DNA of 64,000 nt from Eubacteriales bacterium (GCA_045651165.1 JAZRRX010000058.1:3879-67878); one strand, 5' to 3'; numbered from the stretch's first letter, positions 2,319-9,834 are shown. Translations and numbers: made by a program. The notes: generated by a model not told the origin, from the sequence alone.

Positions 2319-4301
2319 ATGATGAGAAAGATATTAAGTTTGGTTTTGGTGCTTGTTTTGATTTTATCATTATTTGCTTCTTGCAAAAACGATAATGATA
2401 ACAATATTACGAGTACAAGTACCACAACTCCTACCACAACTACTACATCTTCTACAACTACGACAGCAAAACCTACAACTACAACCAAACCTACAACTAC
2501 CACGACAACCAATAATGGTGGTGGCAACGATCCATCAGAGGATCATATTTATAACGACTTCACTGATGAAGAAAAAGAGCTTTTCAGAGAATACGTAGGT
2601 ACTTCTATTTGGTTTATTCCCAATGATGAATACTACGTTGAGGAATACACGTTTGATTATGAAGACGGCACGGGTGAGTACGGAGTTAATTTCTATACCT
2701 ATGGTAACACTCAAGAAGAATTTGACTATTATAAATCGATAATAGATTGGATGTACGACTTCGATGATTCTGCGGAAGATGAATACGGAGATACTTGGTA
2801 TTACTATACTGTAAATAATTACTATTATCTTGATATGTCATACTATTACAGTGATGGTGAATACGTAGTTGATGTGTATGTATATTATATAGATGAAATG
2901 ACTAGCTCGGGTGGTGGTACAAACACGGGCTCGGGCACAGGTTCGGGCGGATCTTCTTCAACCGATGCTAATGTTATTACCAATGCAGGCGTAGGGCTTC
3001 CCACAGGAACTAATGGTATATTCAACGTTGATTTTACAAAAGCGGACAAGGTTAAGGACGTAACAGACCAAGGTTATTATCTTGACGGCTGTCCCACAAC
3101 AGGTTCTCCTGCAGTGCTTGTAATTCCTGTACAGTTTAAAGATGTTACGGCTGCAAGCAAGGAATACACAATTTCCGCGCTTGTTAATGCCTTTTCGCAG
3201 GGTGGTGAAACTGACTACTACTCAGTTTATGACTATTACTATATTTCAAGCTACGGTCAGCTCACACTTGACATAACTGTTCTTGACTATTGGTTCACTC
3301 CTGAAAATAGTAGTAGCTATTATTATAATGCAACGTATGATTACTATGGTGATCAAGTTGCTATTGGTGACCAGTTGATTCTTGACGAAGCACTTGCATA
3401 TCTTGAGGACACTATGGACCTTTCAAAATTTGACTCTGATAATAATGGTATAATTGATTCCGTAGTTCTTATTAATACTCTTGATATTGGTGAAGAAGAT
3501 TTCTATTGGGCATATCGCTATTGGAATATCTATACTGATGATGAAGGTTATTACTATGAATATGACGGAGTTTCTGCAAACGATTATGTTTGGGCATCTT
3601 ATCAGTTCCTTTATGAGAGTTATGATGAGAATGGAGATGTTAATTATGATGATACTTCGGTAAGAAACACCTATACATTTATTCACGAGTTTTCTCATAT
3701 TCTTGGTCTTGATGACTATTATGATACATCATATTCCGATAACGCACTTCTTCTTGATGGATGCGATATGATGGATGGTATGACTGGCGACCACAATGCT
3801 TTCTCAAAGTTCAATCTTGGTTGGCTTACAACATCAAGACTTGTTGTTACAAGTGGTAGCGTAACGCTTACTCTTGAGGATTTTTCAAAGAACGGGGATA
3901 CAATCATTATTGCAAACAACTGGAACGAAAAACTCGGTGTATATCAGGAATATTATGTTCTTATGTATTACAAAAACACAGGACTTAATGGTGGGGATGA
4001 TTACGGATATTTCTCTCGCGATGGTGTTGTAGTTTATCATGTAAATGCATCTCTTTATTCTGAAGAATTTGATGGTGAAATGTATTACGATATTTATAAC
4101 AACAATACGGACTCTTCCGACCAATACGGAACAGAGGATAATCTTATTGAATTTATAAAGTCAGCTGAAGATACTTTCACATACGTTGTTGGCGACACAA
4201 TGCCTTCAGTAACTGATGATAACGGAGAAGTGCTTGGATATAGCTTTGTCATTGATGCTCTTACAAGCGAATATGCAACAATTACATTTACAGCAAAATA
4301 A
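2319..4301 (+). CDS. Lipoprotein with Thr-rich linker and M6-family (immune inhibitor A-like) metalloprotease domain
   Basis: Lipobox LFASC, poly-Thr linker, zinc motif HEFSHILGLDDYY, Met-turn CDMMD, HNAFSKFNLGW. Confidence 0.8.
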   Translation: MMRKILSLVLVLVLILSLFASCKNDNDNNITSTSTTTPTTTTTSSTTTTAKPTTTTKPTTTTTTNNGGGNDPSEDHIYNDFTDEEKELFREYVGTSIWFIPNDEYYVEEYTFDYEDGTGEYGVNFYTYGNTQEEFDYYKSIIDWMYDFDDSAEDEYGDTWYYYTVNNYYYLDMSYYYSDGEYVVDVYVYYIDEMTSSGGGTNTGSGTGSGGSSSTDANVITNAGVGLPTGTNGIFNVDFTKADKVKDVTDQGYYLDGCPTTGSPAVLVIPVQFKDVTAASKEYTISALVNAFSQGGETDYYSVYDYYYISSYGQLTLDITVLDYWFTPENSSSYYYNATYDYYGDQVAIGDQLILDEALAYLEDTMDLSKFDSDNNGIIDSVVLINTLDIGEEDFYWAYRYWNIYTDDEGYYYEYDGVSANDYVWASYQFLYESYDENGDVNYDDTSVRNTYTFIHEFSHILGLDDYYDTSYSDNALLLDGCDMMDGMTGDHNAFSKFNLGWLTTSRLVVTSGSVTLTLEDFSKNGDTIIIANNWNEKLGVYQEYYVLMYYKNTGLNGGDDYGYFSRDGVVVYHVNASLYSEEFDGEMYYDIYNNNTDSSDQYGTEDNLIEFIKSAEDTFTYVVGDTMPSVTDDNGEVLGYSFVIDALTSEYATITFTAK

Positions 4302-4336: not shown

Positions 4337-5170
4337 TTATCTTTTCTTGCCGAGTTCCCAAAAAGCAATAGCACCTGCTGCGCCCACGTTTAGTGAGTCC
4401 ACGTTATGATACATTGGTATTTTAACTGTATAGTCGCAATCTTCAATTGTCTTTGGAGTTAAGCCAGTACCCTCTGTACCAAGAATAATAGCAAGTTTTT
4501 CTTCTTTGTGAAGTTGTGGATTATCAATATCAATAGTATCGTTTCGCAAAGCCATAGCGAGAGTTTTGAAGCCGAGATTTTTCAAATCCTGCATTTTTGC
4601 AGGCCAATCGGCTTTTGTTTCACCAATTTTGGTCCACGGAACTTGAAATACAGTTCCCATGCTAACCCTTACTGCGCGACGGCATAATGGATCGCAACAA
4701 GTTGGAGTTACAAGAACTGCATCAATGCCAAGAGCCGCCGCTGAGCGAAATAGTGCACCGATATTGGTTGAGTCGGTTATCTCCTCGAAAACGGCAATTC
4801 TACGTGCATTTTGGCACAATTCTTCAACAGTGGAAAGGGTGGGGCGCAACATAGCGCAAAGAGCACCGCGTGTTAATTCAAATCCCGTCAGTGATGTCAA
4901 AATATCACGCGAGGCGGTATAAATCGGGGTGTTTTCGGGCAATTTTGCAATAATGTCCCCAACTGCACCGCTTTTAATAAGGCGCTCATCTGTCAAAAAT
5001 GAAACAGGGATACATCCTGAATTCATTGCAACCTCAATAACTGTGGGACTTTCGGCAATAAATATTCCTTTTTCTGGTTCTAATTTGTTTCTTAACTGTG
5101 AGCCTGTAAGACGCACATAAACGTCAAGGGCGCTATCGTTAAAATTAGTTATTTCTATGATATTTGGCAT
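4337..5170 (-). CDS. TrmH/SpoU family RNA methyltransferase
   Basis: NIGALFRSAAALG, RRAVRVSMG, ILGTEGTGL, IPMYHNVDSLNVGAA (SPOUT motifs). Confidence 0.9.
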   Translation of the reverse strand: MPNIIEITNFNDSALDVYVRLTGSQLRNKLEPEKGIFIAESPTVIEVAMNSGCIPVSFLTDERLIKSGAVGDIIAKLPENTPIYTASRDILTSLTGFELTRGALCAMLRPTLSTVEELCQNARRIAVFEEITDSTNIGALFRSAAALGIDAVLVTPTCCDPLCRRAVRVSMGTVFQVPWTKIGETKADWPAKMQDLKNLGFKTLAMALRNDTIDIDNPQLHKEEKLAIILGTEGTGLTPKTIEDCDYTVKIPMYHNVDSLNVGAAGAIAFWELGKKR

Positions 5171-5200: not shown

Positions 5201-5229
5201 ATTGTAACTTTTTTCTGTTAAAATGTCAA
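5201..5229 (-). promoter_or_regulatory. SigA promoter for the SpoU-family gene
   Basis: Minus strand TTGACA (5229-5224), 17 bp, TACAAT (5206-5201). Confidence 0.65.
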
Positions 5230-5236
5230 TAATTTA

Positions 5237-5265
5237 TTGACAAATATATAGAATTTTGCTATAAT
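5237..5265 (+). promoter_or_regulatory. SigA promoter (extended -10) for the HTH-serine dehydratase/ddl unit
   Basis: TTGACA (5237-5242), 17 bp, TGcTATAAT (5257-5265). Confidence 0.8.
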
Positions 5266-5269
5266 TTAC

Positions 5270-5284
5270 TCAACCTAAAGTTGA
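5270..5284. promoter_or_regulatory. Candidate operator palindrome
   Basis: TCAAC-ctaaa-GTTGA between the -10 and the RBS. Confidence 0.45.
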
Positions 5285-5303
5285 TTTTAAAAGGGGATAA
5301 AAA

Positions 5304-6734
5304 ATGAGAAGTCAAGGCGAAAGAATTAAAAAGTTAAGAAAATCCAAGGGTGTTACTCAACGTGAGTTGGCAGAACGACTTGGGATTAGCGAGCAAGCAA
5401 TTTCTAAATGGGAGAAAAATCTTTCTAATCCTTCAACTAAAAATCTTTTGCAGATAGCCAAGATTTTTGGTGTATCAATAACATATTTTTATCAAGATGA
5501 AGAAACTCAAAGCAAAAAAATCACAAAAGAGGGTGGAATGGCATCTCTTCGTGAGCTTTATAAGATAGGACGTGGGCCTTCAAGTTCACATACAATAGGC
5601 CCTGAGCGCGCGTGTTTGCGTTTTAAGAGTGAACACCCTGCTGAAAGCTATAAGGCAATTCTTTATGGTTCTCTTTCAAAAACAGGCAAAGGGCACGGCA
5701 CAGATTACGTTATAAAGCAAACATTTTTGCCTCAAATTTGTGAAGTTGAATTTGACTTTGATACGGAGTGTACAGTACATCCCAACACTATGGATTTAAT
5801 TGCTATCAGCGAGGGGGAAATTGTTGCAAAACAACGTTTTTACAGTGTTGGTGGGGGAAGCATAATTGCAGATGGTGAAACTCTTGCAAAAAGTGATATG
5901 ATTTATCCTCTTGACACTTTTAAGGATATTGCGCAATATTGTCGTCAAAATGGCATTAGAATTTGGGAATATGCATTTGAGATTGAGGGCGAGGGCTTTT
6001 ATGCCCATATGGAAAAAATATGGGAAGCTATGAAACACTCAATGATAGCAGGAATGTCTGATGAAGGCATTTTGCCAGGTGGTCTTGGTGTGCACAAAAA
6101 AGCAAAACAATTATATAATAGCTATAAAGAGAATGAAAACCGTGAAACACGCGAGGACCGACTTGTTTGCGCGCTTGCATTTGCCGTTGGTGAGCAAAAT
6201 GCGGCGGGTGAAAAGATAGTTACAGCGCCCACATGTGGTGCGGCAGGCGTTCTTCCATCAGTAATGCTCTATCACAAGCATAAAAAGGGAGCAACTGATG
6301 ACGATATTATCAAGGCACTCACAACTGCTGGTGTTGTTGGTAACCTTATTAAGCACAATGCATCAATCTCAGGTGCTGAGTGTGGATGTCAAGCAGAGAT
6401 TGGTAGCGCTTGTTCTATGGCAGCAGCTGCTCTTGCAGAGCTTTATGGAATGGATATCGATAAGATTGAATATGCGGCAGAAATAGCACTTGAACACCAT
6501 TTAGGACTTACTTGCGACCCAATTTGTGGACTTGTGCAGATACCTTGCATTGAAAGAAATGCGGTTGCGGCAATGCGTGCTATAAATGCGGCAAATCTTG
6601 CTGATTTGCTTTTTGACACAAGAAAAATATCCTTTGACAAGGTCGTTATCGCTATGAAGGAAACGGGGGACGATATGTCACCTGCTTATAAAGAAACTAG
6701 CGAAGCGGGACTTGCAAAAATTGCAGTTGAGTAG
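5304..6734 (+). CDS. sdaA: XRE/Cro-C1 HTH domain fused to iron-sulfur L-serine dehydratase (single-chain type)
   Basis: aa 1-65 are an HTH (LRKSKGVTQRELAERLGISEQAISKWE); from M79 come GRGPSSSHTIGP, TGKGHGTD, TAPTCGAAG, GAECGCQAEIG and LGLTCDPICGLVQIPCIERN. Confidence 0.9.
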   Translation: MRSQGERIKKLRKSKGVTQRELAERLGISEQAISKWEKNLSNPSTKNLLQIAKIFGVSITYFYQDEETQSKKITKEGGMASLRELYKIGRGPSSSHTIGPERACLRFKSEHPAESYKAILYGSLSKTGKGHGTDYVIKQTFLPQICEVEFDFDTECTVHPNTMDLIAISEGEIVAKQRFYSVGGGSIIADGETLAKSDMIYPLDTFKDIAQYCRQNGIRIWEYAFEIEGEGFYAHMEKIWEAMKHSMIAGMSDEGILPGGLGVHKKAKQLYNSYKENENRETREDRLVCALAFAVGEQNAAGEKIVTAPTCGAAGVLPSVMLYHKHKKGATDDDIIKALTTAGVVGNLIKHNASISGAECGCQAEIGSACSMAAAALAELYGMDIDKIEYAAEIALEHHLGLTCDPICGLVQIPCIERNAVAAMRAINAANLADLLFDTRKISFDKVVIAMKETGDDMSPAYKETSEAGLAKIAVE

Positions 6735-6753: not shown

Positions 6754-7758
6754 ATGAATATAGTAGTTTTGGCAGGCGGGCTCAGTATGGAGCGAGATGT
6801 GTCATTAGCATCGGGCTCACTAATTGCGAATGCTTTGCGTGAGTGTGGACAAAATGCCGTGCTTGTCGACCTTTATTACGGAATAGAAAAAGATGAAATG
6901 TGCTTTGACAATATGTCTGGCAGATACAAATACAAAATACCTGAAACAGCACCCGACCTTGAAGCATTAATTAAAGCCAACGGAGATAGACGCGATCCCG
7001 TGGGTGAAAATGTTATTGATTTTTGCAAAATGGCAGACGTTGCTTTTCTGGCACTTCACGGAGGTGTTGGTGAAAATGGTCAACTTCAGGCACTTCTTGA
7101 AATGAATGGTATTCGTTTTACGGGTAGTTCATCCATTGGTTGCATGCTTTCAATGGATAAGATTATTTCAAAGGAACTTATTTCACAGGAGGGTATTCCA
7201 ACTGCTCGTTGGCTCACAAACAAGAGTAGCCGAGAGGAGTTAAATGCGCTTGTTCCTTGCTTTGTGAAACCTGCGGATAACGGCTCAAGTGTGGGTGTTA
7301 CTAAAGTTGTTAGTGAAATTGAGCTTGACGAGGCGCTTCGTGAGGCAGAGAAGTTTTCTAAAAATATTCTTATTGAAGAGCAGGTAGTGGGCAGAGAATT
7401 CTCTGTTGGAATCCTCGACGGAAAGGCATTGCCCCCCATTGAAATTATTGCATCTGGTGATTTTTACAATTACAAGGTGAAATATCAGGCGGGATTGGCG
7501 CATGAGGAATGTCCTGCCAACATTGATTCAAAATTGACTAAAAAACTTCAAAAATACGCCGAGCGTGCACACAGAGTGCTTCGCCTTGGCTCATATTCAA
7601 GAATCGACTTTATTATGGATGAACACGGTGAATTCTTCTTCCTTGAGGCAAACGCGTTGCCCGGAATGACACCGACAAGCTTGTTGCCACAGGAAGCGGC
7701 TGCGGCAGGTATTAATTATACACAACTTTGCTTAAAGATAATTGAACTTGCAAAATAG
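6754..7758 (+). CDS. ddl: D-alanine--D-alanine ligase
   Basis: LAGGLSMERDVS, LHGGVGENG, FVKPADNGSSVG, FYNYKVKY, EANALPGMTPTSLLP. Confidence 0.92.
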   Translation: MNIVVLAGGLSMERDVSLASGSLIANALRECGQNAVLVDLYYGIEKDEMCFDNMSGRYKYKIPETAPDLEALIKANGDRRDPVGENVIDFCKMADVAFLALHGGVGENGQLQALLEMNGIRFTGSSSIGCMLSMDKIISKELISQEGIPTARWLTNKSSREELNALVPCFVKPADNGSSVGVTKVVSEIELDEALREAEKFSKNILIEEQVVGREFSVGILDGKALPPIEIIASGDFYNYKVKYQAGLAHEECPANIDSKLTKKLQKYAERAHRVLRLGSYSRIDFIMDEHGEFFFLEANALPGMTPTSLLPQEAAAAGINYTQLCLKIIELAK

Positions 7759-7759
7759 A

Positions 7760-7788
7760 AAAAACACCTGCTATATGCAGGTGTTTTT
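7760..7788. terminator. Bidirectional terminator
   Basis: AAAAACACCTGC-TATAT-GCAGGTGTTTTT. Confidence 0.8.
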
Positions 7789-8662
7789 ATTTTATCTCAT
7801 CAATTTTGAATTGAACTTTGTGATGTAGAGAAAAATCATCTTCACCATTCCACATAAGGACTGTGGGGGAGAGGGAATATAGTTCAAACTCAAGTATAGG
7901 TCGTGCACTATCAAGCCCTTTATAAATATATGGTCTTGGAGAAGAGAACAATACACTTGCACTTTCTATAGCAAGATGAGCAAGAGAAACATTGTTCAAA
8001 TCGAGCGCTGAGATATGATACAAATAAGAATAATGATAAAAGCTTGTACCGAGCAGATTTGCGTCTGCGATAGTTATTTTATTAGCAGAAGCAAGAGTTA
8101 TCCGTGCTCCCTTATCGTTAGTTTTGTTTGAAATATAATCAAAATTTTCTTTGTTAGAAAGAGAAATTATCTCTTTAATGCTATCAGGTGCTTTTTTAAT
8201 TAAACTTGCCACTTTTTCATCATCTTGAATAGATAGAATAAGTGCAAATGGGGAAATATATTCCTTTGTGTGATTATAATACTCCTCGCTCATTTCGATT
8301 ACAGTATATTCATCATTACTGATAGAAAGAGTAATAGCCAAAAACAAATCATCATTTGAAAGTGATTTCTTTGTGATTTTTAATAGCTTTTCTGCATTCT
8401 CGCAGATAATTTCTTGATTTATAGTCAATTCGTTATGTAAAAATCGCTTGTTAAAGTCAACTCTATTAGCATTAATGTAGTGGGTATGACTTATTTCACA
8501 AGCAGACATAATTGAACATAGGAAAGAAGCGACATTGCATGTCCTATTTCCAACAATCAATATAATTTTTGACTTGATATCCTTCGATATCAAGTCAAAA
8601 ATTTTGCTATTATGTTTTTGTGTGTTTTTATTAATAAAATTCTTTAGGCTTCTATATGTCAT
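7787..8662 (-). CDS. Hypothetical protein, degenerate FolC/Mur-ligase-like fold
   Basis: Colinear resemblance to FolC (IILIVG; VDFNKRF ~ VDFRERI; YTVIEM ~ VVLEV; KGLDSAR...FELYSLSPTVL ~ GL..ARWPGRFE....P.I) without the GTNGKGS P-loop. Confidence 0.55.
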   Translation of the reverse strand: MTYRSLKNFINKNTQKHNSKIFDLISKDIKSKIILIVGNRTCNVASFLCSIMSACEISHTHYINANRVDFNKRFLHNELTINQEIICENAEKLLKITKKSLSNDDLFLAITLSISNDEYTVIEMSEEYYNHTKEYISPFALILSIQDDEKVASLIKKAPDSIKEIISLSNKENFDYISNKTNDKGARITLASANKITIADANLLGTSFYHYSYLYHISALDLNNVSLAHLAIESASVLFSSPRPYIYKGLDSARPILEFELYSLSPTVLMWNGEDDFSLHHKVQFKIDEIK

Positions 8663-9834
8663 TTTCCAAGTAAAAATCTTCTTGCCGCTTCATATTCTTG
8701 TTTAGCCGCATCCGCTTTTTTGAGATTTGCAGGTGAGTTTGACTTCTTTATTGCACGAAGAAGAATATTTTTCGGTGTTTCCTCGGGGTCAATAAGCTCA
8801 AGAGCAACACATGAATAGTTGTTTGCCTCAAGTCGCTTAAGGCGGAGTGCATCGGTTGCCGCATCACAAAGCTTTTGACGAAGCATTGAATATTCCGTTA
8901 CAAAAGAAAGCTCTTTGCAGTTGATTGTGTGATTTAATTCGTGGTGGCAACAGGGAGTAGACAAAATAACCTTTGCATTTTCCTTTATTGCCTTATCAAG
9001 CACAATATCGGTTGCAATATCGCACGCGTGGAGAGAAATCACAAGGTCGGGTTTCTTTTCGCACTCATACTGAGTTATATCGGCGCAGAAAAATTTAAGA
9101 TTATCAAAGCCAATATCCGTTGCAACCTTGTTGCAATATTCAATTACGTCGGCCTTCAAATCAACGCCATACATTTTAACGTCGCGTCCCATCACGTTTT
9201 TTAGATAGTGATACACTGCAAAAGAGAGATAACTCTTTCCGCAACAGAGGTCGTAAACAACAAGTTCACCATCACTATTGAGGTTGGGATAAATATCACG
9301 AACATTTTCAACGAATTTATTTATTTGTCTATATTTCGATTGTTTTTTGTCGTGAATTCTGCCGTTTTTATCACTTACTCCAAGATATTGAAGAAAGGGG
9401 GCGTCGGGTGTGATAATATACTTTTTTTCTTGATTGTTGCCCAAAATTTCAACCTTTTGGCTGTTGCCAGAGGATATTTTTTGCATGAGATTATTTACAC
9501 CAATAAGCGTTATCTTGCCCGATTTTGATGCCTTGTATTCGCATTCACCTGCGGTTGTGATGAGATTTACTTGCATAGCAGAATCAATCAGTGCGCAAAG
9601 GGATGCTTGTGTATTTTCATCAATATATATATTTTCGTGCTTTGCCTTGTTATCTGTGTGAAAGCTCTCTGCTTGAAGGCAGAGTTTACCAGAGATATTT
9701 TTCAATGTCAAAACAGTTTTAAGTATGCTCTTATCCTTGTGCTTTGAAAAAACTACTTTTTTAAGCGCTTGATTTTCCGCAGAGCAGAGAATAGCATAGG
9801 AGAAATCTTTAATTTTTGCATCAAAATTCATCAT
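8659..9834 (-). CDS. SAM-dependent methyltransferase
   Basis: VYDLCCGKSYLSF, ISLHACDIATD, PCCHHEL, TPKNILLRA. Confidence 0.8.
   Translation of the reverse strand: MMNFDAKIKDFSYAILCSAENQALKKVVFSKHKDKSILKTVLTLKNISGKLCLQAESFHTDNKAKHENIYIDENTQASLCALIDSAMQVNLITTAGECEYKASKSGKITLIGVNNLMQKISSGNSQKVEILGNNQEKKYIITPDAPFLQYLGVSDKNGRIHDKKQSKYRQINKFVENVRDIYPNLNSDGELVVYDLCCGKSYLSFAVYHYLKNVMGRDVKMYGVDLKADVIEYCNKVATDIGFDNLKFFCADITQYECEKKPDLVISLHACDIATDIVLDKAIKENAKVILSTPCCHHELNHTINCKELSFVTEYSMLRQKLCDAATDALRLKRLEANNYSCVALELIDPEETPKNILLRAIKKSNSPANLKKADAAKQEYEAARRFLLGK

Follow-up and report, generated by a model that had tools for sequence, protein, structure and literature searches.

An Eubacteriales bacterium of the gut, from the class Clostridia (GCA_045651165.1, JAZRRX010000058.1:3879-67878), carries, within the 64,000-nt stretch of DNA analysed here (the window), a gene in which an XRE/Cro-C1-type helix-turn-helix (HTH) domain is joined in frame to an iron-sulphur (Fe-S) L-serine dehydratase (L-SD). 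This fused sda gene (5304-6734) is a well-supported and widespread candidate for a trigger enzyme, as one chain combines, at the level of sequence, a module for binding nucleic acids with a competent active site. A conserved palindrome over the expected start site of its own promoter suggests that the protein would bind there, and would thus control its own expression.

The original prediction described one 476-aa frame with a good ribosome-binding site that combines an HTH, a charged linker and a dehydratase, and all of these were found by analysis of open reading frames (ORFs), Pfam and NCBIfam (Table 1). In Pfam, HTH_3 was located at aa 8-62 (E 6.9e-20, 71.3 bits against a cut-off of 23), SDH_beta from aa 81 (E 3.7e-23) and SDH_alpha at aa 230-471 (E 7.5e-77), and the NCBIfam equivalog TIGR00720 (sda_mono, single-chain L-serine ammonia-lyase) was matched with 401 bits against a cut-off of 345.1. 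The best solved relative was the type-2 enzyme of Legionella pneumophila, LpLSD (4RQO, 2.6e-76), to which the alignment begins at aa 80, directly after Met79. In the AlphaFold2 model of the whole protein (predicted local distance difference test score, pLDDT, 82.9) the HTH and the enzyme are independent domains separated by a linker of low confidence. The HTH is composed of five helices (aa 4-14, 19-26, 30-37, 45-55 and 59-62) and does not dock on the enzyme domain; low confidence is confined to two cluster-binding loops, the C-terminal tail and linker residues 66-75 (pLDDT below 50). Foldseek aligned the enzyme part with LpLSD (4rqo) at a template modelling (TM) score of 0.67-0.72, and the HTH with DNA-bound P22 c2 and SinR at a root-mean-square deviation (rmsd) of about 1.1 Å. 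Both the HTH_3 score and the five-helix fold of the XRE family are thus present. A stop codon at the junction, as expected from an assembly or read-through artefact, occurred neither in the protein clusters of close relatives nor in any of the fused DNA loci, since 47 of 47 from independent metagenome-assembled genomes (MAGs) were open across the junction; such an artefact is therefore excluded.

The C-terminal 398 aa are apparently an intact, working single-chain [4Fe-4S] L-SD, which would convert serine to pyruvate and NH3. The motifs named in the original prediction were all located (GPSSSHT at aa 91-97, GCQAE at 361-365, TCDP at 403-406 and PCIERN at 414-419). In the alignment with 4rqo, its three conserved cysteines are matched by the cluster residues Cys362, Cys404 and Cys415, and His131 (in GKGHGTD) falls on His61 of LpLSD. 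It has been reported, together with the cysteine ligands of that enzyme, that His61 is the catalytic base, that its alanine mutant is inactive and that LpLSD is a dimer (PMC12647591). When 58 members of the family with identities as low as 61% were aligned, the three cysteines, His131 and Gly91-Thr97 were invariant alongside about 140 further positions. The C-terminal cysteine of the LpLSD type (Cys458) is absent, as the protein ends in ...GLAKIAVE and has no cysteine after Cys415. In LpLSD, Cys458 is the "tail-in-mouth" fourth ligand that plugs the active site, a trait of the solved type-2 enzyme and not of the whole superfamily, and the beta domain of LpLSD is about 60 aa longer than that of the fused protein. 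By its sequence features the enzyme half belongs to the Fe-S L-SD family, with all of the expected ones found save this LpLSD-specific cysteine. The only other SDH_alpha-like gene in the genome (95% complete, 1.6 Mb) encodes a 428-aa protein resembling CyuA, a cysteine desulfidase; the fusion is therefore the sole L-SD of the genome, and the other fused genomes of the same GTDB family likewise have no L-SD homologue besides their fused gene. The gene for this CyuA/YhaM-like putative L-cysteine desulfidase (L002 1483-2769, minus strand, on genome contig C39) adjoins a large M16-type peptidase-like ORF.

These observations bear on the possibility that the dehydratase domain has been retired from catalysis and is only a module for ligand sensing and dimerisation. 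There is a precedent in BzdR, where an XRE HTH joined to an enzyme fold became a pure regulator and where loss of activity was needed (PMC3602430), and the shorter beta domain and missing C-terminal cysteine of the fused protein would fit such a fate. A catalytically dead domain of the BzdR type was not what the sequence comparisons pointed to, however: the catalytic and cluster residues are invariant together with the many further positions, the TIGR00720 score lies above the equivalog cut-off, the enzyme part evolves as slowly as expected of a working enzyme, no other L-SD is present in this or the other fused genomes, and the L-SD that is standard in the family is an unfused orthologue of this same short type. 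Retirement of the enzyme is thus considered very improbable.

The chief new evidence on the HTH comes from the DNA upstream of the gene. In the alignment of the promoter region from 19 species of the window's genus-level clade, only the columns of the -35 box, TG-n-TAnAAT and the two palindrome arms, TCAAC and GTTGA, were invariant; variation was seen in the spacer between the promoter boxes, in the 4 nt that precede the palindrome, in the 5 nt at its centre and in the leader. When up to one mismatch to TCAAC-N5-GTTGA was allowed within 300 nt upstream of the gene, the palindrome was found at 40 of 47 fused genes (32 exact) and at none of 18 unfused orthologues. The chance rate is about 0.017 per 300 nt, as this genome contains 92 such sites per 1.6 Mb. 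The half-sites lie 10 bp apart from centre to centre, which is the classical spacing for an XRE dimer. The presence of the palindrome also follows the recognition helix, in which S29, A32, S34, K35, W36 and E37 show little or no variation within the family. Alanine at helix position 32 (S[DNE][RQ]A[VI]SKWE) was found in 43 fused loci, 40 of which have the palindrome, and threonine in four (L049, L075, L079 and L085), none of which has it (best matches with 2-4 mismatches). In the tree, L075, L079 and L085 each group with lineages that have both alanine and the palindrome, and L049 stands alone. A correspondingly altered palindrome was looked for in these variants, and the candidate in L085 (TTAAC-N5-GTTAA, about 225 nt upstream of the gene) was rejected as unconvincing. 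Two loci with threonine at the first helix position have a common TCTAC left half-site. These facts suggest that the palindrome is the operator of the HTH of the fused protein, and a predicted palindromic site at the own promoter is what is expected of XRE regulators. The original prediction had proposed that the protein regulates its own transcript in response to serine or to the state of its cluster; the first part gained support from this footprinted palindrome exclusive to fused genes, and the second is weighed below.

The position of the palindrome relative to the promoter differs between families. In the window's genus it follows the -10 box at a distance of 4 nt. In most other families a conserved 11-mer, CTTTATAGTTG, is found 29-30 bp downstream of it, or, in three loci, 20-21 bp downstream, which is one helical turn less. 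TTTATA in this 11-mer is a weak -35 hexamer placed 17 bp from TATAAT, and a GTTGR that falls within the promoter spacer is similar to a half-site. Exact copies of the 11-mer were found in 14 fused loci and copies with at most one mismatch in 18; upstream of any unfused gene, the best match had at least three mismatches. In these bipartite promoters (L021-L023, L047, L067-L069, L071, L073, L074, L076-L078, L080, L082 and L084) the centre of the palindrome is near -73 or -63, and the palindrome of L050, L070 and L086 touches or overlaps the -35 box. The pair of protein and operator is thus conserved and its placement is variable, the operator sitting at different promoter positions across families. 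The repressor reading is well founded, on promoter sequence, for this genus only, where the operator lies over the start site of a consensus promoter. In five loci (L068, L069, L078, L082 and L084) the palindrome is lengthened by locus-specific complementary arms (CACAC/GTGTG or a single G/C) and followed by a T-run; this lengthened form may also act as a terminator, or insulate against read-through out of the gene upstream.

These arms and T-runs, seen in several other families and resembling an intrinsic terminator, together with a T-run that follows the palindrome in the window as well, could also mean that the palindrome is not the site of the HTH at all but an RNA hairpin, what is left of a terminator, or a site bound by some other factor, and that the HTH has another target or a role other than DNA binding. 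As RNA, the palindrome of the window would form a stem of only 5 bp (-3.2 kcal/mol, z 0.57), no better than shuffled sequences, and the transcript should begin within the left arm. A hairpin in the 5' leader was therefore rejected: the arms lack compensatory changes, and degenerate arms (GTAGA, GTGGA) are unaccompanied by a change in the opposite arm. The fixed spacing to the promoter (4 nt in this genus; 29-30 bp or 20-21 bp in other families) and the absence of the palindrome from 18 of 18 unfused orthologues and from 4 of 4 lineages with an altered recognition helix also argue against this explanation, to which scarcely any probability can be given.

A second, degenerate copy of the operator is also found in the window. 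The segment TGTCAATAATTTATTGACA (5224-5242) consists of two back-to-back -35 boxes, those of the divergent SpoU and the sda promoters, and contains a degenerate symmetric copy of the palindrome. In another locus (L011), TCAATAATTTGTTGA occurs at the equivalent position, and the degenerate copy is present only where the SpoU gene is upstream. It is a possible auxiliary site, or a mere by-product of the two -35 hexamers.

The number of candidate targets is small. Nine exact palindromes were found in the genome, and the only intergenic ones are at the own promoter and in a 9-nt gap between thiI and rsmG. The latter, an exact TCAAC-N5-GTTGA (C40:3766-3780) that fills the gap between genes for a ThiI-like (405 aa) and an RsmG-like (259 aa) protein, is probably due to chance. 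Four other fused genomes contain one to three exact sites each, and the extended form TCAACY...RGTTGA occurs at their own promoters only. A larger regulon was considered and rejected, as this genome holds no further promoter-associated copies and the four others no further copies of the extended form. By these site counts, the fused protein looks like a single-target autoregulator.

In the window's genus the operator would control two genes. No terminator was found between sda and ddl in the window, a bidirectional terminator stands right after ddl, and ddl lies directly downstream (gap 14-45 nt) in 19 of 19 species, where the pair is kept despite rearranged flanks. The co-transcription of the two genes supposed in the original prediction is thus supported by sequence features. 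This ddl encodes the only Ddl of the genome; a Van-type D-Ala-D-Ser ligase was considered for it and rejected, as the protein passes the housekeeping Ddl models and falls far under the Van cut-offs. The more distant fused loci have unrelated neighbour genes; what the fused loci share is therefore autoregulation, whereas ddl was captured in this genus only. In Escherichia coli, misincorporation of excess serine for alanine in peptidoglycan has been reported, and elongation or lysis of cells unable to deaminate serine (PMC7002108). A functional link between sda and ddl is plausible.

The fusion is widespread and appears to be old. Length and domain set (HTH_3, SDH_beta and SDH_alpha) are shared by nearly all of the top 120 protein clusters by score (95-61% identity), and the in-frame fusion was found in 23 MAGs, as species-representative genomes, from ruminant and other gut samples. 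In a sample of the GTDB family, 65 of 121 genomes have an L-SD homologue, which is fused in only 7, spread over 5 genera; the remaining ones are about 400 aa long, start exactly at the position of Met79 and are the standard short-type L-SD of the family. Across the class, a match spanning the junction within an open frame of 477-532 aa was found in 28 of 400 genomes (about 7%), from about 11 families, and all 20 loci fetched from this set have the identical layout of HTH, linker, Gly-Met and enzyme. A narrow, genus-level novelty, as first read from the 7 of 121 in the family survey and from a list swamped by multi-HTH proteins, was overturned by this class-wide survey. The survey of domain architecture across Clostridia proposed in the original prediction therefore revealed a widespread family of the class, beyond a local oddity.

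The maximum-likelihood tree built on the enzyme domain places the 34 fused sequences together in one clade (94 in the Shimodaira-Hasegawa-like approximate likelihood ratio test), with six unfused sequences nested inside and the others basal. This topology fits one old gain followed by about five losses of the HTH, six changes in all; a smaller enzyme-domain tree was rooted differently. No separate split HTH gene was found 5' of the unfused orthologues in the two loci L025 and L028. One genome of another family (G229) has two fused paralogues (C30:250916 and C29:61257), and in L048 (G071:C1), which has no recognisable palindrome, a FAKDTA-like repeat extension lies N-terminal to the HTH. In NCBI the members of the family are named "L-serine ammonia-lyase" only, and all of the named members come from MAGs. 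No characterised serine dehydratase is known to couple catalysis to DNA binding, as the original prediction had already stated. A full-text search of the searchable library returned no paper on an HTH-serine dehydratase fusion and none that describes an Fe-S dehydratase as a DNA-binding trigger enzyme.

The HTH has been maintained by purifying selection. Among the 19 species, the nonsynonymous divergence (dN) of the fused gene was 0.074 in the HTH, 0.078 in the enzyme and 0.248 in the linker, and the synonymous divergence (dS) was saturated at about 1.4-1.9. As the dN of the HTH is close to that of the enzyme, both domains are equally constrained; the linker behaves like a tether. Neutral evolution of the HTH, which would have spoken against the original prediction, is thereby ruled out. 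Met79 (5538-5540) corresponds to the start codon of unfused orthologues, and it is invariant or nearly so, with the preceding glycine, in every fused protein. In the window it is preceded by the Shine-Dalgarno-like GAGGGTGGA. An internal start at Met79 that would yield free enzyme was nevertheless rejected, as the Shine-Dalgarno pairing energy in 32 fused loci was -2.56 kcal/mol there against -2.51 kcal/mol at other ATGs (p = 0.69); Met79 is thus invariant without a conserved Shine-Dalgarno sequence before it.

From the analyses above we infer DNA binding, its negative sign and dimerisation, and autoregulation by a dimeric enzyme-repressor at the candidate operator, limiting initiation of sda-ddl, is considered probable. 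The enzyme body would dimerise like its Legionella homologue, so that the dimer carries two HTH heads on 13-aa tethers; since LpLSD is dimeric, the dimerisation required by XRE heads can come from the enzyme body. The paired heads would occupy the two half-sites of TCAAC-N5-GTTGA, and binding so close to the -10 box would block initiation and repress the protein's own operon. In the most speculative step, L-serine in the active site, or loss of the oxygen-labile cluster, would alter the geometry of the HTH and free the DNA, and the enzyme would in this way be induced by a rise in serine or by its own inactivation. The coupling to ddl in this genus would tie the detoxification of serine to the synthesis of peptidoglycan precursors. 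Modulation by serine or by the state of the cluster is plausible because the tether joins the enzyme about 12 residues before the GPSSSHT active-site loop, because the fusion has long been kept, and because known DNA-binding enzymes respond to effectors.

It could also be supposed that the protein is blind to effectors and exerts negative feedback by its concentration alone, which would buffer L-SD and Ddl against a very strong promoter. The operator evidence fits this equally well, and the flexible, low-confidence linker, the lack of HTH docking in the model and the single target per genome agree with it; the essential ddl in the operon would also favour steady expression. However, a separate small repressor would suffice for such feedback, and the retention of the fusion in about 11 families with a tether near the active-site loop suggests coupling to catalysis, as do the known enzymes with DNA-binding domains (PutA, BirA and NadR), all of which are effector-responsive. 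Effector-blind feedback is thus rated as rather unlikely. Several points weigh against the reading as an enzyme-repressor. Seven of the 47 fused loci have no recognisable palindrome. The placement near -63 or -73 in other families fits activation of the class-I type, or looping to the promoter-proximal half-site, and the regulatory sign may differ between lineages. Repression cannot be tight in this genus, as the essential sole ddl is in the operon. Judged by sequence, the enzyme lacks the C-terminal cysteine that is the hallmark of type 2, and its own regulation differs from that of the only solved homologue. A search of RNA runs returned none with this sequence. For the family as a whole, we offer only tentatively, and with somewhat less than even confidence, the picture of an Fe-S L-SD widespread in Clostridia that would read its own substrate or cluster and switch its own promoter through the XRE head, as a repressor here and maybe as an activator or loop-former elsewhere, with ddl captured in this genus.

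Table 1 Features of the fused sda locus (positions counted from the first nucleotide of the window)
Feature	Position	Strand	Details
Fused sda ORF, including stop	5304-6734	+	476 aa, ATG start
Ribosome-binding site AGGGGA	5292-5297	+	6 nt 5' of ATG
XRE/Cro-C1 HTH, aa 1-65	5304-5498	+	Recognition helix SEQAISKWE, aa 29-37
Charged flexible linker, aa 66-78	5499-5537	+	Sequence DEETQSKKITKEGG
Fe-S L-serine dehydratase part, aa 79-476, beta then alpha domain, and stop	5538-6734	+	
ddl, housekeeping D-Ala-D-Ala ligase, second gene of the operon	6754-7758	+	Starts 19 nt after sda stop
Bidirectional intrinsic terminator closing sda-ddl	7760-7788	.	12-bp stem, T-runs on both strands
sda-ddl promoter TTGACA-17-TATAAT, extended -10 TG	5237-5265	+	12/12 consensus matches
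Candidate operator TCAAC-ctaaa-GTTGA	5270-5284	.	4 nt 3' of -10, overlaps expected transcription start
Divergent SpoU-type methyltransferase promoter, TTGACA 5229->5224, 17 bp, TACAAT 5206->5201	5201-5229	-	11/12 consensus
SpoU_methylase ORF	4337-5170	-	Pfam
Degenerate symmetric operator copy TCAAT-AATTT-ATTGA	5226-5240	.	Centre 44 bp 5' of operator centre

Further genes flank the locus. Upstream, at 2319-4301 on the plus strand, a 660-aa ORF resembles a secreted lipoprotein, with long poly-Thr/Ser linkers, a Tyr/Asp-rich region and a HEFSH zinc-protease motif, and it is conserved upstream in many relatives. Two overlapping and probably coupled ORFs of 291 and 391 aa (7787-8662 and 8659-9834, both on the minus strand) are convergent with ddl, and neither has a match in NCBIfam.

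Few enzymes double as transcription factors, and each known one (PutA, BirA, NadR) has been instructive. The fused protein is a candidate for a compact, testable case, in which a metabolic enzyme has its own operator-binding domain and a defined 15-bp site, and nature supplies specificity variants, HTH-loss variants and two promoter architectures for comparison. It could reveal how substrate turnover, or in strict anaerobes the integrity of an Fe-S cluster, is converted into transcription without a separate sensor, and how serine toxicity connects to cell-wall synthesis. As annotation pipelines assign only the enzyme name, the regulatory half goes unlabelled.

PutA (ribbon-helix-helix with proline dehydrogenase and pyrroline-5-carboxylate dehydrogenase), BirA (winged HTH with biotin ligase) and NadR (HTH with NMNAT/RNK) couple catalysis to DNA binding. 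To our knowledge, none of them is an Fe-S dehydratase and none carries a phage-type XRE head while being catalytic. Like these three and the archaeal RbkR (PMC5397151), in which an active enzyme with a DNA-binding domain regulates the genes of its own pathway and usually its own gene, the fused protein would act on its own gene; unlike them, it has an XRE fold and an oxygen-labile Fe-S enzyme. The layout is the same as in BzdR of Azoarcus, where an XRE HTH and a linker precede an enzyme-derived, shikimate-kinase-like domain and the protein represses a catabolic promoter. The kinase domain of BzdR is dead and senses benzoyl-CoA (PMC3602430), whereas the fused L-SD keeps every catalytic residue and is the only L-SD. 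A common logic is possible with aconitase/IRP1 and CitB of Bacillus subtilis, in which the state of the cluster in an Fe-S enzyme of the dehydratase type is read out as gene regulation. Those proteins bind RNA through the enzyme body upon loss of the cluster, whereas the fused L-SD has an appended DNA-binding domain and its dependence on the cluster is hypothetical. With regard to the enzyme, 4RQO and the SdaA/SdaB/TdcG class of E. coli are likewise single chains with the beta before the alpha domain. The dimeric 4RQO has the same fold (TM about 0.7, 36% identity) with the cluster cysteines, the catalytic histidine and GPSSSHT conserved, but does not have the N-terminal XRE HTH and linker. With regard to the head, the five-helix HTH superposes on P22 c2, the 434 repressor and SinR at about 1.1 Å, the recognition helix of P22 c2 has the same SxxAISxWE, and these repressors likewise recognise palindromic operators with half-sites one helical turn apart. 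Unlike in these phage-type XRE repressors, the module for dimerisation and sensing would be a metabolic enzyme of 398 aa, not a small C-terminal domain.

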